Positions 16,285-31,936 of a stretch of DNA of 64,000 bases are shown in pieces. A program made the position numbers and the translations under genes. Numbering within the stretch: the first letter of the stretch is position 1; each line of letters begins with the position of its first letter. Below the pieces are notes generated by a model. That model saw nothing but the letters and a program-made list of their open reading frames with translations. It was not told the DNA's origin and did not search any database. Source of the DNA: Escherichia coli (GTDB taxonomy: Bacteria; Pseudomonadota; Gammaproteobacteria; Enterobacterales; Enterobacteriaceae). The stretch is from NCBI RefSeq assembly GCF_044324785.1, contig NZ_CP172127.1, one strand, 5' to 3'.

Positions 16285-18285
16285 TCATCCTTGTTGCTGA
16301 AGCATGGGGAATAATTGTTCGCAAAGTAAAACACCGTTATTCATTGCTTCTACCCGTGCCTCGCTTTCTGTATTACGAAATTGTGCCAACACATGTGCCA
16401 GCCGATAAAAACCCACCGCGGAGAGGTCATTCGCCAGCAACTCTGCCTGACCAATAGCACTCTGTTCCTGATAGCGCCAGCCGTTATGGAGCAGTTGAAT
16501 AAGTAACGCCTGGCAGCGCATCAGCAACTGATGAGCGGTAGACGGCACAGGCAAAACGCTGGCAGAAGGTAGCGGTGCCACAGGCGCAGTTTCTGCGTCC
16601 AGCGCCCAGGCGCGAGTTTTTGTCATCATCACCCGTGGTTCCAGTGTCAATTGCCCCTCTACAAAGCTGACAAAGCCAGAAACCAGACTCACGGGGTCGT
16701 CTGTTTGTTGCAAAAGCGCCGCCATGCGTTCAACGGCAAAAGGAGAACAGGCAGATGCCGGAAGGGATAACGTCAGCACATTATCTTCCCCTTCGCCGCT
16801 AATGACCTGCGCATCCAGTGTCTGGCGGCTGCTATCCCAACCAAGCGAAATACACTCCGCTACCGGCAGAATAAATAAGTTATCGACCTGGTTGAGTGGT
16901 CGTATGCAGGCGGGGGGACGCTGGCGTAAATATTCCCGCAAAGCCACAATGCCCGGCTGGCGCAACGGCGCACTCAACATTTGCCAGGCGTCTGGCGACA
17001 GTGGAACAACACTACTCAAGCGGTTGCGGGTAGCTAACAGCAGCTCGCCATCGGCACTGCGTTTTGCTGCTTGTGAAACAATTTGCCCACCCGCCAGTGC
17101 GCCAGCCTGAAAACTAAACAGCCGACGCGTCGCTGCCGGTGAGTTTTCCTGTTCGCTTCTCGGCCAACTACGCGAAAGGTGCAAAATACTGCCGGTGTCG
17201 GGATCGGTAAACCAGATGCGTAAACCATACTGCTCAATATCCTGCCAGCAACGCATACCTAAAGACACCAGCCGCAGATGATCAAGCTTTGCTTCTCCGG
17301 CAATGCCAGCGCCAACGACCGTGCGCCACGGCATGGGAGGAACTTCACCAACACTGTCGCGCCGGGCCATCTCTTGTGCACAATTTAATCGATTGTTTAA
17401 TGCCGCAAGCTGACATAAGCATTCTCCGGCATGATAGTGGCTGGCGCGGGCGTGGAAGGCATCAACGCTGGCGCGCAGTTGCCGTAGCGATTCACTCACC
17501 CAGCGCCAGTTGCAGCGTTCCGCCGCTTGCTGCGCGCGGCTGAAAGCAGCCTCGTAATGAATAAGCGGCTGGCTGATGCCGCCAAGCCATAACGCCTGGC
17601 TTAATTGCTGAACATATTGACGACACGCGTCGCCCTCATCGTTGGCAAACGGATCGTCAGATGATGTGACGTGTTCGCTGCGCATCTGCCAGATTAAATG
17701 AGTAAATTCCGCTTGCTGCGCTTTGGCCTGGGCAAAGGCCTGTACTGCCAGTACGACATGTTCGCAAAGTGTGCCGTCAATACAATCACAGCGTGCGAAA
17801 CGAATGCTGCTGCGGGAATAAAAACGTACATCGCTCATCGGTAAGCGGGCAGAGGGAATTTCGCCAGGCGTACAGAACAACTCAATGGTGATGCCTTTAG
17901 CGACCAGTGTCTGTGCGCGTTTGCGGGTGGCATCGGGCAGGGTAGCCAGTTCTTCCAGCCAGATTGCCGGATCCCACTCTTCTTCTTTTTCCGTAGGCTG
18001 GGTGGTGGCGCAAAGTCGCTGATAACTTAAAACCAGCATCACGCGATGGCGGCACATGCCGCTGGCCCCGCAGCTGCATTGAGCCTCTTTCAGTGCCTGA
18101 CCGTTCGCCAGCTGGGTGCGGACACCGTCACTGAAGGTGGCGATTAAAGCGCCGTTCTCATGGCTGATTTCCGGGACGTTGCCATTTTCCAGTTCTTTAA
18201 GGCTGCGCTTAACAAAACCGGCATTGCTTAACGCCGTCAAAGCTTGTGGTGTCAGTTCTAATAATTCCGGCCGTAGTGAATTCAT
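16285..18285 (-). CDS. yehQ: SWIM zinc-finger domain protein, function unknown
   Basis: 666-aa ORF; two CxCx(n)CxH motifs (CSCGASGMCRH, CDCIDGTLCEH); ATG overlaps yehP stop (ATGA); precise start not certain. Confidence 0.75.
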   Translation of the reverse strand: MNSLRPELLELTPQALTALSNAGFVKRSLKELENGNVPEISHENGALIATFSDGVRTQLANGQALKEAQCSCGASGMCRHRVMLVLSYQRLCATTQPTEKEEEWDPAIWLEELATLPDATRKRAQTLVAKGITIELFCTPGEIPSARLPMSDVRFYSRSSIRFARCDCIDGTLCEHVVLAVQAFAQAKAQQAEFTHLIWQMRSEHVTSSDDPFANDEGDACRQYVQQLSQALWLGGISQPLIHYEAAFSRAQQAAERCNWRWVSESLRQLRASVDAFHARASHYHAGECLCQLAALNNRLNCAQEMARRDSVGEVPPMPWRTVVGAGIAGEAKLDHLRLVSLGMRCWQDIEQYGLRIWFTDPDTGSILHLSRSWPRSEQENSPAATRRLFSFQAGALAGGQIVSQAAKRSADGELLLATRNRLSSVVPLSPDAWQMLSAPLRQPGIVALREYLRQRPPACIRPLNQVDNLFILPVAECISLGWDSSRQTLDAQVISGEGEDNVLTLSLPASACSPFAVERMAALLQQTDDPVSLVSGFVSFVEGQLTLEPRVMMTKTRAWALDAETAPVAPLPSASVLPVPSTAHQLLMRCQALLIQLLHNGWRYQEQSAIGQAELLANDLSAVGFYRLAHVLAQFRNTESEARVEAMNNGVLLCEQLFPMLQQQG

Positions 18286-19418
18286 GACTGAAGATTCTCC
18301 GCAAGCCAGGTCGCCAGTTCGCCCGGCGTCATGGCGGCTATTTGTGCGCCGACATTAACCAGCGCCTGGGCCGTATCGTGGTCATAGCAAGGTGTTGCGG
18401 TGCTATCGAGCGCCGCCAGTCCCAGCACTTTGACGCCGCTCTGGACACACGTTTTCACCTGATGCGTCAGCAATGATGATGAACCCCCTTCATAGAAATC
18501 GCTCACGAGGATAATGACGCTTTTCGCTGGTTGTTCAATAAGTTGCCGACCATACTCCACGGCACTGGCGATATTGGTCCCGCCGCCCAGTTGTACTTTC
18601 ATTAATAACTCTACTGGATCAGCAACGTCTGCCGTGAGATCAACGACGCTGGTGTCAAACGCCACCAGATGGGTACGAATGCCGGGTAACTGCCATAAAC
18701 AGGCCGCCATCACCGCAGAGTGGATCACCGAATCGACCATCGATCCGCTTTGATCAACCAGTAAGACCAGTTGCCATTGTTCGCTTTGGCGTTTAATGCG
18801 GCTGTTAAAGCGGGGGGATTCGATATACAACTTGCCGTGTTGCGGGTGCCAGTGTTGCAGGTTGGCGCGCAGAGTACTTTTGAAATCAAAGTTTCGCGCC
18901 AGTGGAATAAATGAGCGGCGACGGCGATCGCGGACACCAGAAAAAGCCTGGCGAACTTCCTTTGCCAGTCGCGCCATAATTTCTTCAACAACCTGGCGCA
19001 CTATCCGGCGGGCGGCAGCCAGCACTTCGGGATTCATCAGATGTTTGGTGTGCAAAACGGCGCGTAGCAGGCTTTCAGAAGGCTGCATACGTTCCAGCAC
19101 GTCGAGATTCGTCACCACATCTTCAATGCCGTAGCGCAGTACGGCATCGCTTTCCAGCCGCTCGATCACCTGTTGCGGAAACAGCGTGTGAATACTGTTG
19201 ATCCACTCAGGGGTGGTGAGATTTGAGTCACCTAATCCACCGGAGCGTTCACCACGCTGGAGCCGTTCAGGATCGCGCCCATACAGCCACTCCAGCGCGT
19301 GGTCTATCTGCCGGGCATTGTCATCCAGCCCACAAAGGGTCGTTTCTGCCGCTTCGCCAAGAATTAATCGCCAGCGTTGTAGCTCACGGGTGGTCAGAAG
19401 ATCGTTCAGTTCAGACAT
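18282..19418 (-). CDS. yehP: von Willebrand factor A (VWA) domain protein with MIDAS motif, function unknown
   Basis: 378 aa from MSELNDLLTTRELQRW...; MIDAS-like DQSGS in LLVDQSGSMVDSV; start overlaps yehM stop; track ORF extends upstream into yehM. Confidence 0.8.
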   Translation of the reverse strand: MSELNDLLTTRELQRWRLILGEAAETTLCGLDDNARQIDHALEWLYGRDPERLQRGERSGGLGDSNLTTPEWINSIHTLFPQQVIERLESDAVLRYGIEDVVTNLDVLERMQPSESLLRAVLHTKHLMNPEVLAAARRIVRQVVEEIMARLAKEVRQAFSGVRDRRRRSFIPLARNFDFKSTLRANLQHWHPQHGKLYIESPRFNSRIKRQSEQWQLVLLVDQSGSMVDSVIHSAVMAACLWQLPGIRTHLVAFDTSVVDLTADVADPVELLMKVQLGGGTNIASAVEYGRQLIEQPAKSVIILVSDFYEGGSSSLLTHQVKTCVQSGVKVLGLAALDSTATPCYDHDTAQALVNVGAQIAAMTPGELATWLAENLQS

Positions 19419-21690
19419 GGAAAACTCCCCAGTGTTGCAGCGATGCCAGTGCCTGCTGTTCGAGTTGTTGATGATGTGCAATGGCTTGCGGTGGACAATG
19501 CAACGGCATTTGCAGCGCTGAAACGGGAAGCTGTGCGAGCTGGTAATGCTCAAGCACCTGATGCGCCAGCGTCCCGCGTTCCCGTGGTGGTAGCCAGGCC
19601 ATCGCCGCACGTAAATCGGGCAGGGCGTTAATAAAATCGTCGTCACTCAGTTGATTTAAATGACTACTGAAACCGGCGATAAATGCCGGCTGACAGGCCA
19701 GTTGATGGCGGGCCAGCGCCAGCAAACCGTGCAGTGCCTCGCCGGATTGTGCCGGGGATAATTGCGCCAGCATCGTCAGCGCCGCTTCGGCACTGGCGTT
19801 GGGATGTTCCAGACGCATCAGTGCGCCAAGAGCCGCGCCGCGATCCAGCGCCGGGGCATGAATCGCCTGACTGCGGCGCTCCAGTAAGGCTACCGCCGCA
19901 GAAAGAGAAACGCCGGGTAAATTAACGCCGCTATGTAGATCGCGCAGGATATGGCAAAGCGCCTGCCAGCTATGCAGGTGAGCGTGAAACTCCTTTTCCT
20001 CCGGTCTGCCGTTGGATTCACACAGCCAGAGTGTGCGATCGATAGCCGCGCATAACGTCGTCTGTAATATCTGCGCGCCTTGCATACCGCTAATTTCATC
20101 CAGCCGCCATAAGGCGTATAGCACTTCCAGCGCCTGGCCCATTTCGGCAAACTGATTTTCCTGGGCGATTAATAATGTAAGTTGCTCCAGTAATTGTTGA
20201 CTGAAGGACGCCAGACCCGCTAACGCCGCCTGGCTAAGACATGTGGTGATACTGCCGATTCCACCCGCGTCCAGCATATCGGCTTCTAATTTATTGCGTG
20301 CGGCTTCCTGGAGTGTGGCACCAAAGCAGGCGGCCTCAATTAATGCCGCATGTTGGCTAAGCGGGCGGGTTAATTTCCAGCGTTCTTCACCGTTGCCTGC
20401 AAGTGTCAGTGTGCTTCCCTGCTGGCGTACAATCCCTGGGATCTCCAGTATTGCCAGCCGATGTAACACCTGACTTTGCGCTAGTCTATTGGGGTTAAAG
20501 CGATTTAAGGTAAGCTCCGCCGGAAGAGAGATTGCGGTACGTTCCAGTTCGCAGGTGACATCTTTTGGCAGAGGCGGTTGTGGCGTAGAAGGGGCAAGTT
20601 TACCGAATCCGTCACCCGCTAATGTGTCTATCAACGTTAGCAGAATCGGATCGGTATCGGGATGAATAACGCCGCGATAGCTCCACGGCAACGGCGCGTT
20701 CAAGGCTTCTTTAATCAGCGAGCCTGCTATGGCATCCAGCCAGTCAGTGCGTAACGGTAGTATATGACCGCGCAACTGTGCCAGCGCCATCGCATGCAGA
20801 TGAGCGGCAGCCATATCCGCTGTTGAAGCAGGCAAGTGGTGCTGGCGCAAACGGGTAAGAACCGTTTTCAGCAGTTGTTCACCTGCCTGCTGCAAGCCCC
20901 ACCGCCAGCACCAGTTTTGCCAGACCGGGGCAGGCATTCCTGAAAGGTATCCTGCCAGCACATCAAGGCGCTTTTCACTGTATGGCGTGAGATAGCAACC
21001 TGTAACGGCATCATCCAGTGAGAGCAATTCTGGCGTGTTAATTTCTTGCGGGCATTCGCGCCACATTTTTGCCAGTGCCGGAGCGTGCCAGCCTCCGCAG
21101 ACGACTAATACGTCGCCATTATTTTGCTGCATCGCCCATCCAATCCAGCGGGCCATAAAGGCTTCGCGCTGACGATTGAGTGCATCGCCGGAGGCGTCGC
21201 CCCGCAGTTGTACAAAATAGTGCGCCAGTGCAGAGGGTAATATAGTTTGCTGGCTTTCATCTTCGAACAAGTGATCCCACAGGGTGTCGCTGTTATCCAT
21301 GCGGGTGGCACGCAGCAGCAAGGTCTGGCTTTCCTCTTGCGTATCAGGCGAATTGTCCTCTTCTTCACTCTGTGCCCAGCAAGGCAAATCGATGAAGTAA
21401 GTTTGTGCCTGAATACGACGTGCGGCTTGTAGCGCCTGCCACTCCGGCGAAAATTCAGCAAATGGCGTCCAGGCACCACGCCCGGGGGCCGCACCGTCCT
21501 GATACTGGCAATAACTGTAAATAGCTACCGGAAGCTGGTGGGCTAACAACAGTTCGTCTACCCGGTCATTAAAATCAGCCGGGCCTTCAATCAACACGTA
21601 TCGTGGCCGCTGGCTTTCGATTAACGATTTCACCAGCCGGGCGCAGGCCGGACTATGATGCCGGATGCCGACAATTAACGGCTCGCTCAT
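19411..21690 (-). CDS. yehM: Large protein of unknown function (759 aa)
   Basis: ATG at 21690 preceded by GAGGAAAG, 10 nt after yehL stop; Leu/Ala/Gln-rich, no motif I can assign. Confidence 0.75.
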   Translation of the reverse strand: MSEPLIVGIRHHSPACARLVKSLIESQRPRYVLIEGPADFNDRVDELLLAHQLPVAIYSYCQYQDGAAPGRGAWTPFAEFSPEWQALQAARRIQAQTYFIDLPCWAQSEEEDNSPDTQEESQTLLLRATRMDNSDTLWDHLFEDESQQTILPSALAHYFVQLRGDASGDALNRQREAFMARWIGWAMQQNNGDVLVVCGGWHAPALAKMWRECPQEINTPELLSLDDAVTGCYLTPYSEKRLDVLAGYLSGMPAPVWQNWCWRWGLQQAGEQLLKTVLTRLRQHHLPASTADMAAAHLHAMALAQLRGHILPLRTDWLDAIAGSLIKEALNAPLPWSYRGVIHPDTDPILLTLIDTLAGDGFGKLAPSTPQPPLPKDVTCELERTAISLPAELTLNRFNPNRLAQSQVLHRLAILEIPGIVRQQGSTLTLAGNGEERWKLTRPLSQHAALIEAACFGATLQEAARNKLEADMLDAGGIGSITTCLSQAALAGLASFSQQLLEQLTLLIAQENQFAEMGQALEVLYALWRLDEISGMQGAQILQTTLCAAIDRTLWLCESNGRPEEKEFHAHLHSWQALCHILRDLHSGVNLPGVSLSAAVALLERRSQAIHAPALDRGAALGALMRLEHPNASAEAALTMLAQLSPAQSGEALHGLLALARHQLACQPAFIAGFSSHLNQLSDDDFINALPDLRAAMAWLPPRERGTLAHQVLEHYQLAQLPVSALQMPLHCPPQAIAHHQQLEQQALASLQHWGVFHV

Positions 21691-21700
21691 GCATCTTTCC

Positions 21701-22789
21701 TCACGGCAGGCGGTGGCGAGCTTGATAATAAGCCTGCCAGTGAGCTTCTTTATGTGTAGCGACACGTTGTTCGAAGTAACGGCGCAGACGTGCGCGATCT
21801 TCTTCGTTATCTTTGACGATGGTTCCGGCAATACAGTCCACCAGGTCGGCTGGCTCCCCCGCGCGATTCGCTAAAAACCAGGCGCGGACGCCCACAGCGT
21901 GGGCCACGTTCACGGCTTCAGCGGTGGACATAATCGCTGTCAGTGTATCCATTGACGTTTTCTTTTCGCCGTTGGCACGCAGATCGCGGAAGGTGCGTAC
22001 CAGTAACTCCAGTACCGCGTCAGGCACTTTATGCGGAATACCGCTATGGGCCAACAAACGCGCCGAAGCACTGGCGACCAGTTCCAGCTCCTGGGCGAAA
22101 TCCATAATCGGAAAGACAGTTTCAAAATCGAAGCGACGCTTTAGCGCAGCACTCATTTCATTGACGCCGCGATCGCGGGTATTGGCAGTGGCAATAATAT
22201 TAAAGCCTTCCCGCGCATAGAGCTGACTGGCTTCACCAGTGAGTTCCGGCACCGTCATTACCCTGTCAGAAAGCATACCTAACAGACAGTCTTGTACTTC
22301 CAGCGGTGTACGCGTTATCTCTTCAAAACGGACAATTTTGCCGTCGCGCATTCCCTGGTAAAGCGGGGCAGGGACCAGCGCTTCCGTTGACGGACCATGG
22401 TTGATAAGCAGGGCGTAGTTCCAGCCATACTTGATTTGATCTTCGGTGGTAGATGCGCCGCCCTGGATGGTTAACCCGGCATCGCCGCTAATAGCGGTTG
22501 CCAGTAATTCAGACAGGAGAGATTTTGCGGTGCCAGGTTCCCCCACCAACATCAAACCGCGCCCGGTAGCGAGAGTGACTAACATGCGTTCGACAGCGGA
22601 GGGACTGATCACGACTTTACGGCTAATATTTTGCGCTTCGTCGCCAAGGATAAAAGCACGGGCCGCAGGCAAACTTAACTGCCAACCTGGCGGGCAAGGT
22701 GCGTTATCATTTTGTTTTAATTTTGCCAGTTCATCGGCGTATAACACAGCGGCAGGCGGACGCTGCAGATGTTTATTCTGCGGTGACAT
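21701..22789 (-). CDS. yehL: AAA+ ATPase (MoxR/CbbQ-like, AAA_5-type), function unknown
   Basis: 362 aa from MSPQNKHLQRP...; Walker A GEPGTAKS; Walker-B-like hhhFEEITR. Confidence 0.8.
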   Translation of the reverse strand: MSPQNKHLQRPPAAVLYADELAKLKQNDNAPCPPGWQLSLPAARAFILGDEAQNISRKVVISPSAVERMLVTLATGRGLMLVGEPGTAKSLLSELLATAISGDAGLTIQGGASTTEDQIKYGWNYALLINHGPSTEALVPAPLYQGMRDGKIVRFEEITRTPLEVQDCLLGMLSDRVMTVPELTGEASQLYAREGFNIIATANTRDRGVNEMSAALKRRFDFETVFPIMDFAQELELVASASARLLAHSGIPHKVPDAVLELLVRTFRDLRANGEKKTSMDTLTAIMSTAEAVNVAHAVGVRAWFLANRAGEPADLVDCIAGTIVKDNEEDRARLRRYFEQRVATHKEAHWQAYYQARHRLP

Positions 22790-22900
22790 ATATTCATCCC
22801 TGAAATGTATTAATGAAATAAACGATATTTTACGCGCAATAAATGTTTGGCGCATTAGTTGTTTGAGCGAAAAATATCTGGAAAGCAGATCACAGTAAAT

Positions 22901-22981
22901 AAAAAAACCTGCTGGTGAGGCAGGTTCTTTTATTTACTACAGTGACGCTAACTTGCTGATTGTGCAACATTTCGTACCAAC
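22901..22981 (-). ncRNA. orzO: OrzO-like antitoxin sRNA, copy 1 (~81 nt, boundaries inferred)
   Basis: Minus-strand TATAAT (22993-22988) 17 bp from palindromic TTGCAA (23011-23016); intrinsic terminator on minus strand (stem cctgc/gcagg 22908-22924 followed by U7 at 22907-22901); 5' 18 nt (22964-22981) complementary to zor 5'UTR 23132-23149 with one G-U. Confidence 0.5.
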
Positions 22982-23010
22982 GAATAAATTATAACCATAT
23001 CCACACTCCA

Positions 23011-23038
23011 TTGCAATTCAGTGAATGAGATTTATAAT
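23011..23038 (+). promoter_or_regulatory. Sigma70-type promoter of toxin mRNA, copy 1 (TTGCAA-16-TATAAT); the palindromic -35 is shared with the divergent sRNA promoter
   Basis: TTGCAA 23011-23016, TATAAT 23033-23038; predicted TSS ~23045 giving ~175-nt 5'UTR. Confidence 0.55.
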
Positions 23039-23219
23039 CCTGCCCGTTGGGAGGTTGTGCCGGATCGGACCAATTTTAAGTCCTGGCTACCGGACGGGTG
23101 GTGCCGCAGGCGGTGCCCTGATCCGGAGAGCAACGTTTCGTACCAACATACGTAAACCAGTATCGACAGGCAGTGTAAGGGTAAGGTGCTGGTGTTGCGC
23201 TCCTTAATAAGGAGAGCGG

Positions 23220-23309
23220 ATGGACACGCTGACACAAAAGTTAACCGTGCTCATTGCTATACTGGAGCTATTAGTGGCTCTGTTACGGTTGATTGATTTG
23301 TTGAAGTAA
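23220..23309 (+). CDS. zorO: ZorO-like type I toxin, 29-aa hydrophobic peptide (copy 1)
   Basis: MDTLTQKLTVLIAILELLVALLRLIDLLK; AAGGAGA SD 7 nt upstream; TisB-like amphipathic helix; below ORF-track cutoff; which copy is zorO vs zorP not resolved. Confidence 0.7.
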   Translation: MDTLTQKLTVLIAILELLVALLRLIDLLK

Positions 23310-23330
23310 CGGGCAAATTGAAACGCATCT

Positions 23331-23354
23331 AAGGGGGAAAACCGCTTCCCCCTT
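23331..23354 (+). terminator. Hairpin terminator after toxin ORF copy 1
   Basis: aagggggaa-aaccgc-ttccccctt perfect 9-bp stem. Confidence 0.5.
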
Positions 23355-23508
23355 TAATAAAATGATTACTGTTTTTATTAATTCATCATATAACTCATTT
23401 TTATTTATAAATTCATCGATTTTATATTCAACGTACCATTTGACCGGGATGTGAATATTTATGGTGGGCTATTGGCAAAAAATATCTGGAAAGTAGATCG
23501 CAGAAAAT

Positions 23509-23589
23509 AAAAAAACCTGCTGGTGAGGCAGGTTCTTTTATTTACTACTTTGATGTTAAGTTACTGATAGTGCAACATGGCATCTCAAC
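23509..23589 (-). ncRNA. OrzP/OrzO-like antitoxin sRNA, copy 2 (boundaries inferred)
   Basis: Same architecture shifted by 608 bp; 5' pairing region differs from copy 1 at several positions and matches its own cis toxin UTR better. Confidence 0.45.
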
Positions 23590-23618
23590 GAACGAATTAT
23601 AACCACCTCTGGACAGTG

Positions 23619-23646
23619 TTGCAATTAAGATAATGAGATTTATAAT
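23619..23646 (+). promoter_or_regulatory. Sigma70-type promoter of toxin mRNA, copy 2 (TTGCAA-16-TATAAT)
   Basis: TTGCAA 23619-23624, TATAAT 23641-23646. Confidence 0.5.
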
Positions 23647-23827
23647 CCTGACTGTTGGGAAGTTGCGCCGGATCGAACCCATTTCAAGTCCTGGCTACCG
23701 GACGGGTGGTGCCGCAGGTAGTGCTCTGATCCGGAGTGCAACATGGCGACTCAACAAACGTAAACCAGTGTCGACAGGCAGTGTAAGGGTAAGGTGCTGG
23801 TGTTGCGCTCCTTAATAAGGAGAGCGG

Positions 23828-23917
23828 ATGGACACGCTGACACAAAAGTTAACCGTGCTCATTGCTGTACTGGAGCTATTAGTGGCTCTGTTACGGTTGA
23901 TTGATTTGTTGAAGTAA
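23828..23917 (+). CDS. ZorO/ZorP-like type I toxin, 29-aa peptide (copy 2)
   Basis: MDTLTQKLTVLIAVLELLVALLRLIDLLK (I14V relative to copy 1); same SD. Confidence 0.7.
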   Translation: MDTLTQKLTVLIAVLELLVALLRLIDLLK

Positions 23918-23936
23918 CGGGCAAATTGAAACGCAT

Positions 23937-24344
23937 CTAAGGGGGAATACCGTTTCCCCCTTTAATAAAGCTATACTCGTCATACTTCAAGTTGCATGTG
24001 CTGCGACTTGAATTATCTAGAGTATATAATTCTATTTGTTGGTTGAATATATTCTGTAGTTCACAATTAAAAATTACTATTACAGGTTCAGGTGATTCGC
24101 CTCGTAATTTTTGCTCATCAATAAACTCATCTCTTATATAAATCAACGCATCATTTATTAGCGGGTCGACATCTTCTCGATCACGTTGATGAAATGTTGG
24201 ACGTAGCCGGAATCGCTCCAGCCGGTAGACGGAGCCTGTAAATAATTCAGAGCGTTTATGGATCTCAAGCCTGAAGGAAAACGGCTCTTCAGGTACAGGG
24301 GCCTCATAGTCGTAAATAGTGACCAGCTCTTTTTGCACGATCAT
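23937..24344 (-). CDS. yehK: Small protein of unknown function
   Basis: 135-aa ORF (MIVQKELVTIYDYEAPVPEEPFSF...) 60 nt downstream of yehI; C-terminal codons lie in the terminator hairpin. Confidence 0.6.
   Translation of the reverse strand: MIVQKELVTIYDYEAPVPEEPFSFRLEIHKRSELFTGSVYRLERFRLRPTFHQRDREDVDPLINDALIYIRDEFIDEQKLRGESPEPVIVIFNCELQNIFNQQIELYTLDNSSRSTCNLKYDEYSFIKGGNGIPP
23939..23962. terminator. Hairpin after toxin copy 2, abutting the yehK stop codon (convergent)
   Basis: aagggggaa-taccgt-ttccccctt; yehK stop at 23937-23939 on the opposite strand. Confidence 0.5.
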
Positions 24345-24404
24345 CGCTTTTCCCGGTGGCAGGTCGTGTTAATAACGGGCAGTCGCATCACTGCCCGCTG
24401 TGTT

Positions 24405-27400
24405 TTAATGGAAAATAACGTCGGGTGCGCTTAACGCTTCACTCAAATCAAACACATCAAGTTCGGCAAAAGTGACAGATTTATTCTCGCGGTATACATG
24501 AAGAGAACGGAAGCTCATTAGCGCTTTGCTATCAACATTGTAGTGGTTAAAACCGGATGAAAACTTAAGGACCAGCCGGTACTCGCCCAGGTCATAGACA
24601 AATGCGTTCTCATAGCCTGACTCCCAGCCTTTGTATCGCATTCCCATAAGTTGCCCAACGGTAGCAGATTTACCTTCCCAGCGATTCAAACTATTACTGG
24701 CTGACTCGTCAGGCGTGAGCAGCACTGTGCGCCGTGCCAATTGGCGAAAAGGCGGCATAATTTCGTAATCGGCAAAAAGCTGTGCAAACTCACTGCGCAT
24801 TTCTGCTGCCATTTCTAACGGGTGGGCAATGCCAATCAGAGCATCGGCAGGCAGGTCAATGGGCTCATCTTGCTCATTGCAGAACTCCCCCTCAGCGGCC
24901 ACACGAAAGGCGTTGAGTAAACGACGCGGTTCATTTGCCGGATAAACACCCCATATTAATCGCTGAGTAACCAGACGGGTAAAGGGATGATTAACAAACA
25001 GAGAATGAAAATCTGCCAGCGACCAGCGTCGGGTGGTGCGCAGGGCAGTTTCAAGACGCGGGAGCAGGTTTTTGCTCACCTGAGTGGCATCTTTTTTTAG
25101 CCCTTTTAGTCGGGCCAGTGCCTCGGGTGCTTTCAGTTGATCGTCATCGGCGCGCAACCGGGGAACGCTTTTCTGGCGAACGTTTTGCTGATCAAAGATA
25201 ACCGGGTTAAGGTTTTCATCGAAGCGAACGGTAAATTGCCGTGGACCAAAATCAAAAATCAACGCCTGCGGATCATCAAGACCCAGTGTTGGGACTAATC
25301 TGTCCGCTAACTGTTCCTGGCTTAGCCCGCGATTTTCTGCGACCACCTGAAGAAATTCCGCCGCGTTATCACGTAAGGGGCGGGATTTCGCCCGTTGCGA
25401 TATATGATGCAGCTGTATCAGTGCCATATCATTATTCATCTGAGTAAGGATGTTCAGGCCGCTGACGGCACGGGCAGATTTGCCTTCCTGTGGCCAGGCA
25501 AGGATCTGTGTCGTCAGATCCCGTGCCGTGCTTTCGTCGCCAAAGAGACTTAACGCCAGAAATGCCCAGTTGTCTTTTGCGGGAGCACCAGCTTGTTGCC
25601 ACGCGGTGAAAAGATCCCAGGCAAAAGCTGCCAGCGTTTGCGGCTGGCAGAAAGTTTTCAGTTGTTCCAGTCCGCTATAAAAACGTCCGCCCTGGGTAAA
25701 GCACAGCATTTCGCCGATAATTTCCAGAGCGTCATCGGTAACAGGCTGATTATTAGTGATAAGGCGCGGCCTGGACCACATTGCCGGCTGCCAGAAATCA
25801 GGGGCTTTTGGAATGCGTGTCGGGTAAATCTCTATTGGACTCTGTTTAAGTAATTGCTCCAGGGCAGGCCATACATCTTTACGCTGCCAGCGGTTTGCCA
25901 CGGTTTGCAGTAACTCGCCATGTCCCTGTTCGTAAAGTAAACGCAGGGCAAGTAATGCAGCTTCGCTATTATCGCTGGATTTGGTGAAGACAAGAGGGAT
26001 AAGTGCAGTAGCCGTATGTTCCGGCCAATGTAAAATCCACTGGCGAGCCAGATCACGCTGCGCCGCGAAACGTCGCCAGACGCGGGCAACGGGCAGTGCC
26101 AGTTCGGTTGCGCCGAAATTTAAAATTAACGGAAATGTTTCTTTTGGACGATGTGAAAAAGCCAACAGCAGACCTGGTAGAGCATCCAATCCGAAGATAC
26201 TGAGAAAATAGTCCTCACCCGCAGACAGATGCTTTTTCTCATTGATACGTAGCCAGAAAGTCAAAGCCATCTCACGCGGCAACTGCGCCAATAAATACTG
26301 GTTCCAGATACTCTTTTCCCGACGATAGCGTGAGTAGCTGTCATTTTCCCATATGTTAATTAACACTTCTACGTGACCGCTGCGAAGCGCCTGTTCTGCT
26401 AATTGAGCTTCCGGGGAGCTCCAGCCATTCATGATCTCTTCAACCCGCCCTGGGTAGTAATGCCACTGAACAATGAGTGAATTGCGTGCAGCATCCAGTT
26501 TTCCGGGGAGTATATAATTCAAAAACAGCCATACATCATCTCCAAAACCCAGCTCCTGTAGTACAACTCGTCCACTTTTATGTTCCATGCGTTCCGCAAG
26601 AGATTCCGTGCTGAAATAACGGGCAGACTCAGTGGCGGCAAGCCTCTCTCGTTCGCCCGGTTGCCAGTAAACTTGCGGCGTTAATTCGAACGGTGCCAAA
26701 TCAAGACGTGGAACTGTCATTTTTTTCTTACTACGCCACGGTGGTGAAACGAGGATTTCAGGCATTTGGCTGTTATCGGTGCTATCAATAACCGTTTTGG
26801 GCGGTGCCGATAAATAACTATTCAGCACTGCCTGGGCTTGAGTACTTAACCACGGCATCACCTCTTCTGCCAGTTGTGGCTGCGATGCCATCAGCGTTTG
26901 TAACAGCGTACGCCAGAATTCATCACGTGCTTTTTGCTGTGCAGGCAGCTTTTTGTCTTCGATGATTGGATAACCTGGGCGGGCTGGTGGTTCTTTTAAC
27001 GCCAGCAGTTCTGCCAGTGCGGTGAGTGTCGCATGGGGGAAGTTTTTACTGTATTTAGCCACACGTTGCAGGCTGGGTTTGTTTTTATCAGCAACTAACA
27101 GCAAGGTGCGGATGACTTGCGGATGGTTAATTTGTACCAGCAGACTGCCGCAATCTTCTTTATGAGCATACATTGCCAGGCGCGGAACGGCTGCCAGTCC
27201 TTGTTCGCGCAAAAGGGAGGCGCAGGCCGCGTAGCCGAAGCGGTTTTCTTGTGACATGTAGCTGGCTTCGCGATCGCTAAATACGTCCAGGCCCCAGTAT
27301 CGTTCGAGTTTTTTTACCGCTCTGGGGTCATTAGCAACAACTTTTAACCACTCCTTAGAATGAAAATGAGTCCGCGGGCATTCAAGGCCTACCAACTCAT

Positions 27401-28037
27401 TGGCGATTTCTGGTTTTTCCGGGAGGAGCAGCGCAATAAAAGGGCGGCGAACTTTGGTTATTCCTGGCAGTGCGGCAATGAGTTTGTCGGCGCAACGCTG
27501 CCAGCTGCTTTCCTCTGCCAGAGAGAGATGCTTACGCAGTCGGAGATCGAATTCGTTATAGGTTTCTGAGCGATAACCATAGCCATAATCCTCGTTCTGA
27601 TACTGCAATGTCACTAGCAGAGGATCACTCTCATAACACCGTGCAATAAACTGGCGTGCAATCACCACCTCAGTCGCATATTCCAGTCCCTCTTGTTGGA
27701 CGATTTCGTCGAGCAACTGTTGGCTATCATTTTGCGCGATACAGGTTAGCGCCGCCATTGTCCGGGCCGGAACTGAGGGTTTGTGTTCTCCGATCAAGTT
27801 GATGGCCTGCGTAATGGCCGACTGCCACTCCAGTGAAAAATTTTCATAACGCCAGACAATGTTTTTTTTCTTCTCAGCTTTTTGTAGCAATTCATCACCC
27901 AGTGTCTGGATGAGGCTTTCAGTGATAACAGGCACCGGTTCGCCCGGCCAACTGCGATGGCTGAGCGGCGTTTTGCCTTTTTTATATTTCAGTTCCACTT
28001 GGGCGTTATCCGCCAGCCACGGTAATTCCTTGTCCAT
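24405..28037 (-). CDS. yehI: Large DUF4132-type protein of unknown function (1210 aa), paralog of molR
   Basis: Long blocks alignable with molR product (e.g. RLRKHLSLAEESSWQRCADKLIAALPG... and FTAWQQAGAPAKDNWAFLAL...DFGPRQFTVRFDE); start 9 nt after molR stop. Confidence 0.8.
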   Translation of the reverse strand: MDKELPWLADNAQVELKYKKGKTPLSHRSWPGEPVPVITESLIQTLGDELLQKAEKKKNIVWRYENFSLEWQSAITQAINLIGEHKPSVPARTMAALTCIAQNDSQQLLDEIVQQEGLEYATEVVIARQFIARCYESDPLLVTLQYQNEDYGYGYRSETYNEFDLRLRKHLSLAEESSWQRCADKLIAALPGITKVRRPFIALLLPEKPEIANELVGLECPRTHFHSKEWLKVVANDPRAVKKLERYWGLDVFSDREASYMSQENRFGYAACASLLREQGLAAVPRLAMYAHKEDCGSLLVQINHPQVIRTLLLVADKNKPSLQRVAKYSKNFPHATLTALAELLALKEPPARPGYPIIEDKKLPAQQKARDEFWRTLLQTLMASQPQLAEEVMPWLSTQAQAVLNSYLSAPPKTVIDSTDNSQMPEILVSPPWRSKKKMTVPRLDLAPFELTPQVYWQPGERERLAATESARYFSTESLAERMEHKSGRVVLQELGFGDDVWLFLNYILPGKLDAARNSLIVQWHYYPGRVEEIMNGWSSPEAQLAEQALRSGHVEVLINIWENDSYSRYRREKSIWNQYLLAQLPREMALTFWLRINEKKHLSAGEDYFLSIFGLDALPGLLLAFSHRPKETFPLILNFGATELALPVARVWRRFAAQRDLARQWILHWPEHTATALIPLVFTKSSDNSEAALLALRLLYEQGHGELLQTVANRWQRKDVWPALEQLLKQSPIEIYPTRIPKAPDFWQPAMWSRPRLITNNQPVTDDALEIIGEMLCFTQGGRFYSGLEQLKTFCQPQTLAAFAWDLFTAWQQAGAPAKDNWAFLALSLFGDESTARDLTTQILAWPQEGKSARAVSGLNILTQMNNDMALIQLHHISQRAKSRPLRDNAAEFLQVVAENRGLSQEQLADRLVPTLGLDDPQALIFDFGPRQFTVRFDENLNPVIFDQQNVRQKSVPRLRADDDQLKAPEALARLKGLKKDATQVSKNLLPRLETALRTTRRWSLADFHSLFVNHPFTRLVTQRLIWGVYPANEPRRLLNAFRVAAEGEFCNEQDEPIDLPADALIGIAHPLEMAAEMRSEFAQLFADYEIMPPFRQLARRTVLLTPDESASNSLNRWEGKSATVGQLMGMRYKGWESGYENAFVYDLGEYRLVLKFSSGFNHYNVDSKALMSFRSLHVYRENKSVTFAELDVFDLSEALSAPDVIFH

Positions 28038-28046
28038 GCTCTTTCC

Positions 28047-31000
28047 TTATTCAAACAGGGCTTCAATATCGTTAATTAGCTCGCTGGCGGTGATGGCATC
28101 GAGTACGGAGAACTGCGCTTCCTGTGTTGAATTACTCCCCCAGCCATAGCTTTCTGCTTTGCCTTCCCATAGCCACAGCTTGCTTAAGAGTTGCTCGGCA
28201 CTGAGTTCGGCTGGCGACATGCCGACCGCAAAACCTTCATCGATTTCCATGATTAACGACCAGCGGCCCAGAGGTTTGATCATCCAGCCGATCCAGCCTC
28301 CATCCTGCGGGGTGCCCTTTATCCAGCCTTTATTCGCCAGCCCCATGACCCGACCGCTCGGGCATTTTCTGCCTGCCCAGTGGGTCAGTTCGCTGGCGTT
28401 GCGCTCGGCTTCTGTCAGGGCGTAACTGTTACGGTCAAGCTGACGGAACGGTGGTAGCAGTTCATAGTCGGCAAAAAGCTGACCAAAGGCGGCAGCATCC
28501 GTTGGTGATATTTCCAGAACGTGAGGAATGCCGATAGAGATATCGCCTTCCGGCAGGGTGAAAAGATCATCGTCAGCGGTGCTGTAGCTGTTATCTTCCG
28601 CCACGCGAAAGCAAGCCAGTAGCTCGTTTTCGGTGCTATAAACGCCCCAAATCAGACGGCGGGTTAAGTGACGAACCAGCGGATGCTCAACCAGGAAGAG
28701 CTGGAAGTTTTCCGGCGACCAGCGGCGGCGCAGGCACATGGCGGATTCCAGCCTTGCTACCTGCTGGGCGGCGATGGTACGCGCATCTTTTTTCAGCAAT
28801 TTGTAGCGGTTAACAGCATCGTTCGCCTGTGATTCATCATCGCTTTTGTTTGGTTTGGGTAAATCTTTCAGGCGGCTGCCGGAAGCGTCACGCACAAACG
28901 GTTTTAAGGTTTCATCAAAGCTGACGGTGAACTGGCGTGGGCCGAAATCCAGCAGCAACGAACCGTTATCATCCAGACCGAGATTCGGTGCTAACCGATC
29001 TTCAAGCTCCGCCACCGTGAGCTCGCGGCTTTCGGCAATGTCGGCAATTTTCTCTTTCGCCCGCTCCTGTAATGCTTTGAATTTCAGTTTCTGGGCGATG
29101 CCGTTAAGCTGCATCAGGGCGATATCACTACCGATAGCAGCGAGAATATCCAACCCAACGGTGGCGCGTTTATGCTGAGATTCGCCAGGCCAGGCGCGGA
29201 TTAATGGCGTCAGTTTGCGGGCGGTGTCATCGTTGCCGAGAACACCTAACGCAATGAACGCCCAGCTTTCTTTCGATGGCGCGCCCGCAGTCAGCCAGGC
29301 GGTAAACAGATCCCAGGCAAATTCAGCCAGAGAGTCAGAGGTACAGGCATCTTTCACCTGCAATAATCCCGGATACAGAGCCTCTTCCAGAGGGAAGCGG
29401 AGCATTTCACCGAGGTGGAGGAGGGCGTTATCTGGCAGTGATTGGGCGTTTGCTTTTAATACCGGGCGCGTCCAGAGCGATGGCTGATAAAAGGCCGGAA
29501 GAGTGGGGATTTTTGTCGGGTGATTATCTAAGGCATCGAGCGCAAGCAGAGCGTTCACCGCATCTGTTACTTCCGGCTGGTTATAACGCCGGGCGATTTC
29601 TTGCAGTAATAGCTGATGACCGTTTTCGGTAAGCATACGCAAGGCAGCGCGGGCGTTATCCTGTGCTTCACCGGCTTTGCCGAGCGCCGAAGGTAGCAGG
29701 CCGGTAATGGCGTGTTCCGGGTATTTCAGCAGCCAGGTGCGGGCGTCTTGTCGTAGGGTTTTGAGTTTGTTGAAGGCGCGGGCGATCAGTGGCGCTAATT
29801 CGATAGCCGCAAAATATTGTGCTACAGGCAGAGCTTCTTGTGGATAGCGTGAAAAGGAGTGAATAAAACCCTGTAACCCAGCGAGTTGCAGGTGTGTCAT
29901 GACAAACTCGACACCGACGTGTGGCTCTTTACTAAGGACATTCCACGCCTGCGCTGTTTTTTCGATAGGCAGGGCGGCTAACATGTAAAGCTGCCATTCC
30001 CGTTGATAGGAGTGCCAGAAGGTTTTAAATTCGCTGATCAGCGCAGAATAATCTCCCCTCTGCCAGAGTTCTACAACAGCATCAGACGCTTTCATAGAGT
30101 GGCCATTATTCCAGCGATTGAAACCCAGACGTGTCAGGTAGTTCTGAATATCCTCTTTTTGGCCGATGTCTATTTGATGTGCGTGCCAGCGATGCCTTGC
30201 ATGAATCTCTTTTTCTGCCGTCTCGGTCAATGTGCAGCATGACTCCAGCGGTAATGGCGTTAAATCCAATACCGGCATTACAGATTTTTTCTTTTTCGAA
30301 AGCCAGGGCGGTGAGACTAATACGGCAGGCAGCATATCGGCGCTGGCATGGTTTGAGGGCTGTGTCAGTTGTTGCTGGCATGATTTCAGTACGGCAACTG
30401 CGGGTGTTGAGAGCCAGGGAGTGACCTGTTCTGCTAGTGCCGGTTGCGAGATAAGCATCGTCATCAGCATAATGCGCCAACTATTCTCTTCTTTTTGCGC
30501 AAGAAGTTCCGCCAGTGCAGCCAGTGCTGCGTGTGGGAACGCAGCGCAAGCCTTAGTCATTCGTTCATGGCAGCGTTTAGTTTTGCCAGACACACGTATA
30601 AGTAGCATTAATGCTTGTGGGTGATTGATCTCTTCGAGAATACTTCCACAAAGATCAGCATAAGCATAGGGGGCGAAGCGAGCGATTCCGGCAATCCCTT
30701 GCTCCTGCAAAACGGTGACATTCCAGATGCAACCATGGTAATAGTCATTAAAAAGGTCGTACGCGCAATAAGATTCCAGTGCTTTGAGCAAGGAAGATTC
30801 TTGAACAACAAGTTTCAGCCATTCAACAGTTTGGACATTTTTCTGCTTCAGTAACTGTCGTGCGACTTCTTCTGCAATCTCCGGGCGTTCCGGTAGCATT
30901 AGCGCTACCATCGGTTGTTGAACGGGAGGAATATCAGGCAAAGCTGTAATGAATTTATCTACACAGCGTTGCCACAAAGTTTCTTCTGCTAGAGCCAAAT

Positions 31001-31796
31001 GCTTACGCAGTCGAACGTCAAAGGGGGTAACACAATGTGCGTGGTTTAATAATGGCTGAAAAGTAATGTGTATGCTTGTTCTGTGATAAGTGCAATCGAA
31101 CGAGATATATTGCATGGCAATAAACATATCCACGGCAAATTCTAGTCCGTAGACATAGACAATTTCATCCATGAGTTCAGGGCATTCGCCCCAGAATTTA
31201 CGCGAAACCAGACCAACCTGTACAGCCAACGCAGCAGGAGAAAGTGGACCATTAGCGAGAGCTTCATTGATATTCTGCTGCCAGTTAGCAGAACATGCAC
31301 TGAAATCGTATGTTGTTAATTTTCCTGATAGATTATGAATATCCTGACCTAAATTCATAAGGAGGCTGTCTTGTGGTTCGCTTACAGCATCCCCAGGAAA
31401 ACGTCGGGAAGGTAAGGCCTCCTGAGACTTTTTCTCCGATAGATGGATAGTGGAATCATCTGTAAGCCACGGGCATGGTGTCTCAGCAGGTTCAGCAACC
31501 ATACTTTGGTCAAATACGACAGTGGTTTCTGCCACGCCAGTTGTATCTACTTCGATCGTTTCTATTTTGATTGCGGGTTGGGATGGCGAAGATAATTCTT
31601 CCACATATCCCTTCTTCACCTTCTCCGCAATCAGCTTCAGTTCCGCTTTTTCCGCAGCCGCAGTATCAGCAAAGCTTTTTACCTGACTTTGCCCTTTGGT
31701 GCCAACTTTTCCCCAACTGATATGCAACTCGTTTCCCTGTTGCTCAACCGCCCAGAATTTATGTGATTTTTCGCCCTGAAAGATAAAGTGTCTCAT
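28047..31796 (-). CDS. molR: Large WGR-domain + DUF4132-type protein (1249 aa), intact
   Basis: N-terminal WGR-like motif (FQGEKSHKFWAVEQQGNELHISWGKVGTKGQ); C-terminal paralogy with yehI; continuous ORF. Confidence 0.8.
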   Translation of the reverse strand: MRHFIFQGEKSHKFWAVEQQGNELHISWGKVGTKGQSQVKSFADTAAAEKAELKLIAEKVKKGYVEELSSPSQPAIKIETIEVDTTGVAETTVVFDQSMVAEPAETPCPWLTDDSTIHLSEKKSQEALPSRRFPGDAVSEPQDSLLMNLGQDIHNLSGKLTTYDFSACSANWQQNINEALANGPLSPAALAVQVGLVSRKFWGECPELMDEIVYVYGLEFAVDMFIAMQYISFDCTYHRTSIHITFQPLLNHAHCVTPFDVRLRKHLALAEETLWQRCVDKFITALPDIPPVQQPMVALMLPERPEIAEEVARQLLKQKNVQTVEWLKLVVQESSLLKALESYCAYDLFNDYYHGCIWNVTVLQEQGIAGIARFAPYAYADLCGSILEEINHPQALMLLIRVSGKTKRCHERMTKACAAFPHAALAALAELLAQKEENSWRIMLMTMLISQPALAEQVTPWLSTPAVAVLKSCQQQLTQPSNHASADMLPAVLVSPPWLSKKKKSVMPVLDLTPLPLESCCTLTETAEKEIHARHRWHAHQIDIGQKEDIQNYLTRLGFNRWNNGHSMKASDAVVELWQRGDYSALISEFKTFWHSYQREWQLYMLAALPIEKTAQAWNVLSKEPHVGVEFVMTHLQLAGLQGFIHSFSRYPQEALPVAQYFAAIELAPLIARAFNKLKTLRQDARTWLLKYPEHAITGLLPSALGKAGEAQDNARAALRMLTENGHQLLLQEIARRYNQPEVTDAVNALLALDALDNHPTKIPTLPAFYQPSLWTRPVLKANAQSLPDNALLHLGEMLRFPLEEALYPGLLQVKDACTSDSLAEFAWDLFTAWLTAGAPSKESWAFIALGVLGNDDTARKLTPLIRAWPGESQHKRATVGLDILAAIGSDIALMQLNGIAQKLKFKALQERAKEKIADIAESRELTVAELEDRLAPNLGLDDNGSLLLDFGPRQFTVSFDETLKPFVRDASGSRLKDLPKPNKSDDESQANDAVNRYKLLKKDARTIAAQQVARLESAMCLRRRWSPENFQLFLVEHPLVRHLTRRLIWGVYSTENELLACFRVAEDNSYSTADDDLFTLPEGDISIGIPHVLEISPTDAAAFGQLFADYELLPPFRQLDRNSYALTEAERNASELTHWAGRKCPSGRVMGLANKGWIKGTPQDGGWIGWMIKPLGRWSLIMEIDEGFAVGMSPAELSAEQLLSKLWLWEGKAESYGWGSNSTQEAQFSVLDAITASELINDIEALFE

Positions 31797-31902
31797 TCTG
31801 CATCCCTGTAATTTTATCCAGTTGAATGCTGATGCTACCAGTATTTATGCGGGTTAGAGAGAGACAAAATCGCAAGAAAACAACTTTAGGAATTTATAAA
31901 GA

Positions 31903-31926
31903 AAAGGCGCTGTCGATGCAGCGCCT
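31903..31926 (-). terminator. Rho-independent terminator after metG
   Basis: aaggcgctgtcgatgcagcgcctt hairpin 10 nt below metG stop, followed on minus strand by T-rich tract. Confidence 0.6.
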
Positions 31927-31936
31927 TGAAGGGGGA

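Follow-up and report, generated by a model that had tools for sequence, protein, structure and literature searches.

A 64,000-nucleotide stretch of Escherichia coli DNA (contig NZ_CP172127.1 of assembly GCF_044324785.1; hereafter the window) carries molR (28047–31796, minus strand) and yehI (24405–28037, minus strand), tandem genes whose products are large paralogous proteins of 1249 and 1210 amino acids (aa), respectively. Across several bacterial groups, genes of this family lie beside homologues of yehL, yehM, yehP and yehQ, and within E. coli a long segment of MolR is hypervariable. We propose that MolR and YehI are alternative target-recognition subunits of a five-component machine built on YehLMPQ, which is probably an SOS-linked conflict or surveillance system. 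We place the probability of this reading as a whole at roughly 0.55. That MolR and YehI act as adaptors of the YehLMPQ machine is likely.

Two paralogues with a common C-terminal module

A first-pass annotation of the window, made from the letters alone, described molR and yehI as paralogues separated by 9 nt, with a WGR-like motif in MolR only and a DUF4132 region at the C-terminus of both. Each of these points was borne out. BLASTP aligned MolR with YehI at 37% identity over 1180 aligned positions (673 bits, E = 0), from MolR residue 109 and YehI residue 6 through both C-termini; the alignment includes the peptides quoted earlier and is not confined to short low-complexity stretches. Because this 673-bit alignment spans both proteins to their C-termini, the paralogy is full-length and far above chance. 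YehI begins at the position corresponding to MolR residue 109 and is in effect MolR minus the WGR domain and the linker that follows it.

The Pfam family PF05406 (WGR) matches MolR at residues 5–67 (E = 1.4e-17, 64 bits), and no WGR match was obtained for YehI in the Pfam search. The MolR WGR domain (aa 1–67; 31596–31796, minus strand) was delimited by Pfam and by structure superposition, its model superposing on the WGR domains of PARP1 and PARP3. In its signature, W28-G29-K30 (WGKVGTKGQ), arginine is replaced by lysine and the charge is retained. DUF4132 (PF13569) matches MolR at residues 973–1158 (E = 2.6e-50; 28323–28880, minus strand) and YehI at residues 954–1138 (E = 1.2e-46; 24624–25178, minus strand). 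The conserved C-terminal unit exceeds the Pfam model and comprises about 590 residues. In MolR this constant C-module (aa 661–1249; 28047–29816, minus strand) consists of HEAT-like repeats followed by an alpha/beta DUF4132 domain, and its PDB matches are HEAT/ARM repeat proteins only. The hypervariable region (aa 66–660; 29817–31601, minus strand) consists of a linker and the N-terminal alpha-solenoid and divides into three cassettes, aa 66–262, 263–520 and 521–660.

Structure prediction, which the first-pass annotation had recommended, gave AlphaFold models of MolR for which some 50 diverse homologues were aligned. The mean predicted local distance difference test score (pLDDT) was 94 for residues 601–1249 and 86 for residues 1–660. 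The predicted order is WGR (~1–65), a disordered linker (70–98, pLDDT <50), an alpha-solenoid (~110–935) and an alpha/beta domain (~945–1249). For the hypervariable region the models predict a helical fold, with most pLDDT values >80. This predicted alpha-solenoid architecture fits the earlier idea of a sensor/scaffold pair; the notion that the pair functions separately from yehLMPQ found no support. Since neither MolR nor YehI has an N-terminal hydrophobic signal, both proteins are probably cytoplasmic.

The name molR reportedly comes from a 1990 study of molybdate utilisation. The first-pass annotation saw no domain that would justify a molybdate regulator, and this judgement stands. No helix-turn-helix or other transcription-factor domain was found in the Pfam search of MolR, no metal-related domain in the Pfam searches of MolR and YehI, and no client-enzyme or molybdenum genes in the conserved neighbourhoods of the adaptor loci described below. 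The molR gene of E. coli K-12 is a pseudogene (yehF plus yehH); K-12 nonetheless uses molybdate.

The sole NCBIfam match of MolR residues 2–104, far under the family's cut-off, is with the N-terminal part of the LIC_11051 'fibronectin-binding' family of Leptospira, and the best PDB match of the MolR N-terminus, Bacteroides fragilis 2ra8, covers MolR 2–79 only. Both presumably run on into a different repeat scaffold; if those layouts hold, a WGR domain plus a repeat scaffold would be a recurrent bacterial architecture. A 1776-aa relative on a metagenomic contig (L009 6883–12213) has a histidine-kinase module at its N-terminus (HATPase_c and a faint match to HisKA), ahead of WGR-solenoid-DUF4132. 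Its gene has a response regulator gene upstream and a MoxR gene and a YehM homologue downstream. This fusion supports a sensing role for the MolR family.

Linkage to YehLMPQ across bacteria

The WGR-DUF4132 family comprises 2651 clusters (50% identity) at E ≤ 1e-30, with a conserved core equivalent to MolR ~630–1249. A scan of one genome per species yielded 73 loci, and three metagenomic contigs brought the number to 76; species labels are those of the sources and pseudogene calls those of the RefSeq annotation. All 76 loci were searched by tblastn with the YehL, YehM, YehP and YehQ proteins of the window. Homologues were present in the fetched flanks of 55 (YehL), 54 (YehM), 48 (YehP) and 47 (YehQ) loci, counts that depend on the 10-kb flanks and the tblastn thresholds and describe the best-scoring relatives rather than a random sample. 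They are nearly always co-directional. The loci span Beta-, Gamma-, Alpha- and Deltaproteobacteria, Actinobacteria and Myxococcota.

The commonest arrangement is a co-directional [WGR-DUF4132]n-YehL-YehM-YehP-YehQ, and 25 loci have exactly this order with one adaptor gene (wDLMPQ in shorthand). Variants include DLMPQ, LMPQwD and LMwDPQ, and many family members are without WGR. An estimated 64 nt (median) separate yehL from the adaptor gene, and the distance is <150 nt in 38/49 cases. Median identity to the E. coli proteins is 74% for YehL, 68% for YehP, 55% for the adaptor C-module, 46% for YehM and 34% for YehQ. Loci without L-M-P-Q are either very short contigs or extra copies and arrays in genomes, mainly Massilia, with a complete cluster elsewhere.

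Adaptor genes also multiply. The number in tandem ranges from one to five or more per genome (L007, L011, L028, L040, L046), and orphan copies also occur in genomes having the full cluster. In seven arrays the paralogues are 24–58% identical in the N-terminal solenoid as against 49–82% in the C-module. The adaptors of one genome thus differ most in the N-terminal solenoid.

In the window the four core genes follow on the same strand as the adaptor genes. YehL (21701–22789, minus strand) is a MoxR-family AAA+ ATPase by RefSeq annotation, with an intact Walker A motif (GEPGTAKS); its AAA module matches the Midasin AAA modules (E = 6.7e-10) and MoxR 2r44 in the PDB. Of the seven subfamilies of MoxR ATPases named in PMC3893208, one is the YehL subfamily, with this protein as type member. 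YehP (18282–19418, minus strand) is a von Willebrand factor A (vWA) protein by RefSeq annotation and motif scan, and the DQSGS motif of its metal ion-dependent adhesion site (MIDAS) is intact at residue 222. YehQ (16285–18285, minus strand) has two SWIM zinc-finger motifs, matched by Pfam at residues 56–88 (E = 1e-3) and 160–183, with CxCxnCxH motifs at residues 70 and 166. The K-12 yehQ (L002 21101–22945) is annotated as 614 aa, versus 666 aa in the window and most strains; the K-12 and window DNA align across the full 2 kb with one indel. K-12 yehQ therefore appears truncated or frameshifted, judging by this alignment, besides the molR pseudogene.

YehM (19411–21690, minus strand) is a DUF5682 protein (Pfam, E = 3.4e-97) for which a PDB profile search returned no relative. 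The motifs GxRHxSPAC, EGPxD, DLP, RExxM and CGGxH in its N-terminal part are invariant in 27 aligned homologues. Within the N-terminal ~240 residues, G8, R10, H11, S13–A17, E35–P37, D39, D101–P103, R175–E176, G199–G200 and H202 are invariant across phyla, and by their pattern these residues look catalytic. The motifs resemble the ordered GxxH, E, RxxxM/W and GxxH motifs of TraB/PrgY/TIKI-type hydrolases. They parallel E. coli YbaP by eye, yet hhalign gave a probability of 0.2%. With the likeness statistically unconfirmed, membership of YehM in the TraB/TIKI-like hydrolases is no more than a lead.

Variation and control of the locus in Escherichia

The molR allele of the window is rare, being found with at least 80% gene coverage in 154/5426 complete E. 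coli genomes by sensitive blastn. The isolates with the best whole-locus matches to the window (97% identity) are of pig, wildlife and environmental origin. Eight representative MolR alleles were compared, all of them intact open reading frames (ORFs) of 1233–1264 aa. Between alleles the WGR domain is 82–95% identical and residues 661–1249 are 92–98% identical. Between classes, identity falls to 15–42% for residues 66–262, 63–75% for residues 263–520 and 33–46% for residues 521–660. The cassettes combine independently: allele P0033 shares cassette 1 with the window (99%) and has a cassette 3 only 43% identical to it, and P0041 shows the reverse.

The genes around this segment behave differently. 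Against the window, nine strains showed identities of 99–100% for MetG, 100% for ApbC, 99% for YehL, 97–99% for YehP and 95–97% for YehM and YehQ. In the same comparison the MolR C-module was 94–96% identical, and YehI is 91–99% identical among E. coli strains. In 7/9 strains, by contrast, MolR residues 66–262 were 30–40% and residues 521–660 26–44% identical to the window. On these values, variability in E. coli is sharply limited to MolR residues 66–660. General divergence of the window genome was rejected as a source on the same MetG and ApbC values; window metG has ~97% nucleotide identity to that of K-12, and the window is Escherichia DNA. Gene conversion from YehI was also rejected, the cassettes being 13–33% identical to YehI.

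Two MolR classes occur in E. coli and also among proteins labelled E. fergusonii at NCBI. Over residues 66–262, members of one class from the two species are 95% identical, and the two classes within a species are 24% identical to each other. This is the pattern expected of long-term maintenance, or exchange, of old alleles. The ancient, recombining classes of the MolR solenoid, whose cassettes are saturated, suggest selection for diverse specificities.

Copy number varies as well. The inspected E. coli strains have 0, 2 or 3 large paralogues, several having two (molR and yehI) as in the window. ST131-like and O157 strains have three. Their extra paralogue, of 1265 aa, lies between metG and molR, adjoining metG (L003 16775–20572 in FDAARGOS_1290; L005 15999–19808 in O157 AR-0429), and its C-module is 58% identical to that of MolR. 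The WGR domain of this third paralogue is 91–94% identical to that of MolR, and the upstream LexA-box region is identical. The pattern suggests recombination breakpoints within or just past the WGR domain.

Disruption is frequent. Components are annotated as disrupted in 6/11 E. coli loci (K-12, O157 AR-0429, OkiPb01688, SC418, FDAARGOS_1301 and 50EVAW). In 50EVAW, IS1 stands in place of molR, yehI, yehK and the 5' end of yehL (L006 12248–12945), and in O157 AR-0429 an IS3-family element truncates yehQ (L005 1–1194). In an ST131 sublineage, TnMB1860 carrying blaCTX-M-15 is inserted in this region (PMC9334617). Some annotated frameshifts may be assembly errors; metG itself is annotated with an 'internal stop' in one locus (L086).

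A candidate LexA (SOS) box, AACTGGATAAAATTACAGGG, lies at 31804–31823 (minus strand), 7 nt 5' of the molR ATG. Its core, CTGG-ATAAAATT-ACAG at 31806–31821, has one mismatch to CTGT-N8-ACAG; a search of the window with the exact consensus gave no site. The box is identical in 10 E. coli loci, K-12 included, whatever the allele class or copy number, and a near-identical box, AACTGGATAAAAACACAGGG, stands at the same position in Klebsiella oxytoca. Among 84 upstream regions from other taxa, LexA sites with one mismatch were found in 3, and only that of K. oxytoca is at the matching position. Universal SOS control was therefore discarded. As Escherichia and Klebsiella are the only genera in which the box turned up, the SOS control that it predicts is lineage-specific. 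K-12 molR is on a list of LexA-regulated genes with a known SOS box (PMC6590174), and in Deinococcus, genes for DUF4132 and WGR proteins are reported as members of the DdrO radiation/desiccation regulon (PMC8533742). Upstream of the LexA box, at 31824–31850, a further conserved element reads ATACTGGTAGCATC in E. coli and TAACTGCTAGCATA in K. oxytoca; it may be a promoter or a second operator half-site. The metG terminator hairpin (31904–31927, minus strand), with a 9-bp stem of which 6 pairs are GC and then a T-run in the terminator scan, sets the upstream limit of the molR transcription unit. The first-pass annotation had missed the LexA-regulon listing, the hypervariability of the MolR solenoid and the variation in copy number.

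The gene order of the window (yehQ-P-M-L, yehK, yehI, molR, metG, apbC, yehE-A) matches that of K-12. The 9 nt between molR and yehI are followed by a gap of 60 nt between yehI and yehK, and the gaps within yehL/yehM/yehP/yehQ are 10, -8 and -4 nt, yehP overlapping yehM by 8 nt and yehQ by 4 nt. Between yehK and yehL lies a zorO/orzO block of two tandem type I toxin-antitoxin units (22856–23936, no strand assigned), which is 1.08 kb long, low in GC and has a tandem repeat period of 608 nt. It holds two zorO ORFs of 29 aa each, identified by ORF reading (23220–23309 and 23828–23917, plus strand), and two OrzO-P RNAs (22901–22974 and 23509–23582, minus strand; Rfam RF02083, 89–92 bits), each with a strong minus-strand intrinsic terminator. 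The zor-orz locus was described by Fozo in 2010 (PMC2887945). K-12 is without the tandem block of the window. Because two orzO terminators intervene, molR-yehI(-yehK) and yehLMPQ very probably form separate transcripts in the window strain. Comparison with other genera indicates that the separation of the adaptor genes from yehLMPQ is a derived state. The second operon of the first-pass annotation is thus plausible as a separate transcription unit in E. coli; a separate function is not, and the genes are no self-contained system, being linked to yehLMPQ homologues elsewhere.

The same annotation had counted yehK (23937–24344, minus strand) in that operon. This 135-aa ORF of low G+C (local GC ~0.44) is restricted to Escherichia: tblastn found no match in the 76 loci of other genera, and yehK is probably no core part of the system. 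A GC-rich hairpin in the yehI/yehK gap (24376–24397, no strand assigned; terminator scan and sequence) has a good T-run on the plus strand only, so a role on the minus strand is uncertain. YehK has 105 aa in K-12, and the last ~70 nt of its gene in the window (23937–24007) do not align with K-12 or with another locus (L001). Its stop codon is 20 nt from the convergent zorO stop, within the zorO terminator hairpin. Because the zor-orz insertion seems to have remodelled the C-terminus of yehK, strong constraint on this gene is doubtful.

A candidate machine, its rivals and its relatives

In the machine that we propose, the constant C-module of each adaptor, HEAT-like repeats plus DUF4132, would dock on the shared YehLMPQ core, and the long N-terminal alpha-solenoid would bind a target protein. 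The WGR domain of MolR, on its flexible linker, may tether the complex to nucleic acid, for example at DNA ends or nicks; YehI, having neither WGR nor linker, would work without this tether. In Escherichia and Klebsiella the LexA box would place the adaptor genes under induction by DNA damage. The YehL ring, acting through the YehP MIDAS, may then remodel or extract the adaptor-bound target in the manner of Midasin or another MoxR-vWA pair. As targets we favour invading elements or the protein-DNA complexes that they form. Taken by itself, an immune or conflict role is possible rather than probable. We suggest still more tentatively that this is an unrecognised class of innate-immune or invader/DNA-complex surveillance system, fixed in the E. 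coli chromosome and SOS-induced, in which a set of interchangeable HEAT-repeat sensors would direct a MoxR-vWA extraction machine and long-term balancing selection would keep their specificity region polymorphic.

Several observations weigh against this proposal. No effector (nuclease, TIR, toxin) was detected in Pfam, NCBIfam, PADLOC and PDB searches of the components. None of the seven proteins matched a PADLOC-DB v2 model of a known or candidate defence system at E ≤ 0.01, and the known defence systems were set aside on this result. The locus is no mobile island: its place on the chromosome between metG and yehR is fixed in nearly all E. coli, 5419/5426 genomes matching. A tblastn search of 50,697 phage genomes gave no match, and a phage origin was dropped. 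PHROG matches were very strong and spanned whole E. coli proteins, YehK included; they are most likely chromosomal genes drawn into prophage predictions and were not used as evidence. Occurrence on plasmids is rare (31/72,556 records, mostly megaplasmids or mislabelled chromosomes), and a plasmid-borne system was likewise abandoned. YehI itself is no hypervariable protein, and the LexA box was found in two genera only. The terminators part the two E. coli gene sets, which are probably regulated differently; in K-12, yehL and yehM are silenced by H-NS (PMC3686432). Lastly, because many strains, K-12 included, have disrupted components, the system is dispensable in the laboratory.

The main rival is a remodeller for DNA-damage repair or tolerance, in which, once SOS is induced, the MolR WGR domain would bind breaks and recruit YehL/YehP, the SWIM protein and YehM, possibly a hydrolase, to clear or process proteins caught on the damaged DNA, a housekeeping stress function and not immunity. 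It accounts for the SOS and DdrO links and for the PARP-like WGR domain. We consider it unlikely nevertheless, as it leaves the polymorphism unexplained: classes 15–45% identical, variable copy number and frequent disruption are unexpected of a housekeeping factor. K-12 does without an intact molR, the LexA box is limited to Escherichia and Klebsiella, and many relatives (DLMPQ) have no WGR domain. Frequent disruption could instead mark a functionless remnant, a cryptic acquired cluster decaying under relaxed selection, with MolR diversity brought in by introgression from other Enterobacteriaceae, in a part of the chromosome prone to recombination, and owing nothing to selection for diversity. 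The 6/11 disrupted loci, the transposon in ST131 (PMC9334617) and H-NS silencing of yehL and yehM agree with such decay. The divergent alleles, however, all keep more than 1230 codons and a confidently predicted fold, and their divergence is bounded to residues 66–660, with the WGR domain, C-module and promoter conserved. Moreover, the five-gene cluster is kept across phyla, YehL at a median of 74%, and some of the frameshifts may be assembly errors. We regard a remnant as improbable.

Two further possibilities concern what the adaptors serve. A self-contained molR-yehI-yehK operon, its sensor/scaffold pair independent of yehLMPQ, would suit the insulation of the two gene sets in the window by the zorO/orzO block, with its pair of strong terminators on the minus strand and a promoter region for yehL alone, and ten 'wD' loci have no L-M-P-Q within 10 kb. 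Most of these orphans, though, come from Massilia genomes with a full cluster elsewhere, immediate adjacency to yehL dominates, and yehK is absent from all 76 non-Escherichia loci; independence is quite improbable. Alternatively, YehL and YehP might insert a cofactor into a metalloenzyme with MolR and YehI as scaffolds, in the manner of CbbQ/O, NorQ/D and CoxD/E, an idea to which the historical name 'molybdate metabolism regulator' points. Characterised MoxR-vWA pairs are mostly maturation factors (PMC3893208, PMC7159879), and NCBIfam gives weak matches for both Yeh proteins, YehP with a cobaltochelatase subunit (E = 9.5e-4) and YehL with GvpN. Set against this, the neighbourhoods hold no conserved client gene, and the adaptors are hypervariable and multi-copy, unlike a scaffold for a single client. 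With molR a pseudogene in K-12 and no metal-related or transcription-factor domain in MolR or YehI, a maturation chaperone is very improbable.

Parts of this picture are already known. The genes and their Pfam domains are annotated, and earlier publications cover the SOS box and the YehL subfamily. We found no functional study of DUF4132, DUF5682 or YehLMPQ in the open-access literature, in keeping with the unknown function that the first-pass annotation gave the pair, and no publication establishing the function of molR or YehL; the main text of a paper on the evolution of radioresistance does not include these genes. Nor did we find there the unification of MolR/YehI with YehLMPQ, the arrays with constant C-terminal and variable N-terminal parts, or the mosaic, trans-species polymorphism of MolR. 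Joining molR, a gene of the LexA regulon, and the YehL subfamily in one system provides a concrete, testable model for both. Nearly all E. coli have this architecture, which recurs in >2600 protein clusters across bacteria. Should a defence or surveillance role prove true, WGR-solenoid-DUF4132, DUF5682 and SWIM proteins around a MoxR-vWA core would be a new architecture, and such a role would explain why the locus is often disrupted in the epidemic clones ST131 and O157.

Among described systems, the closest kind are the MoxR-vWA ternary conflict systems (Kaur, Burroughs, Iyer and Aravind 2020, PMC7159879). They share with the Yeh system a core of MoxR AAA+ ATPase and vWA protein, large putative invader sensors, a diversified sensing part and the occurrence of several paralogous systems in a single genome, as well as enrichment in Actinobacteria, Myxococcota and other large-genome bacteria. 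They differ in their third components, which are WGR-solenoid-DUF4132, DUF5682 and SWIM proteins in the Yeh system and VMAP, an inactive STAND NTPase (iSTAND), FtsH or a vWA-fused beta-propeller in the ternary systems. Unlike the ternary systems, the Yeh proteins gave no fused effector or effector-associated domain (EAD) in Pfam, NCBIfam, PADLOC and PDB searches. YehL is classed in a MoxR subfamily of its own (PMC3893208), and PMC7159879 makes no mention of WGR, SWIM or YehL.

The core also resembles Midasin/Rea1, RavA-ViaA, CbbQ-CbbO and NorQ-NorD in matching an AAA module with a MIDAS, the MIDAS gripping the client and the AAA+ ring remodelling or extracting it. Systems of the Midasin and RavA type, however, serve a single fixed client and are without multi-copy, hypervariable adaptors, and in the Yeh system the ATPase and the MIDAS are on separate polypeptides. 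Compared with the PARP WGR proteins and 2ra8, MolR is without an ADP-ribosyltransferase domain, has a WGK motif and continues into HEAT-like repeats and DUF4132.

The nearest parallel to the variation of MolR is with sensors of the Avs or NLR-like kind and those diversified by diversity-generating retroelements (DGRs), which likewise join variable repeats to a conserved module, occur in arrays and keep classes within and across species. DGR-diversified sensors occur in MoxR-vWA loci and offer a precedent for variable sensors there (bioRxiv 10.1101/2023.09.22.558884, PMC7159879). MolR differs from these sensors in having no STAND NTPase on the same chain and no DGR, its diversity reflecting recombination of ancient cassettes rather than targeted mutagenesis. 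Its polymorphism is nonetheless immune-like, with ancient mosaic classes, variation in copy number and frequent loss. If the surveillance role is true, the logic of the locus would be comparable to that of polymorphic NLR or major histocompatibility complex (MHC) loci.

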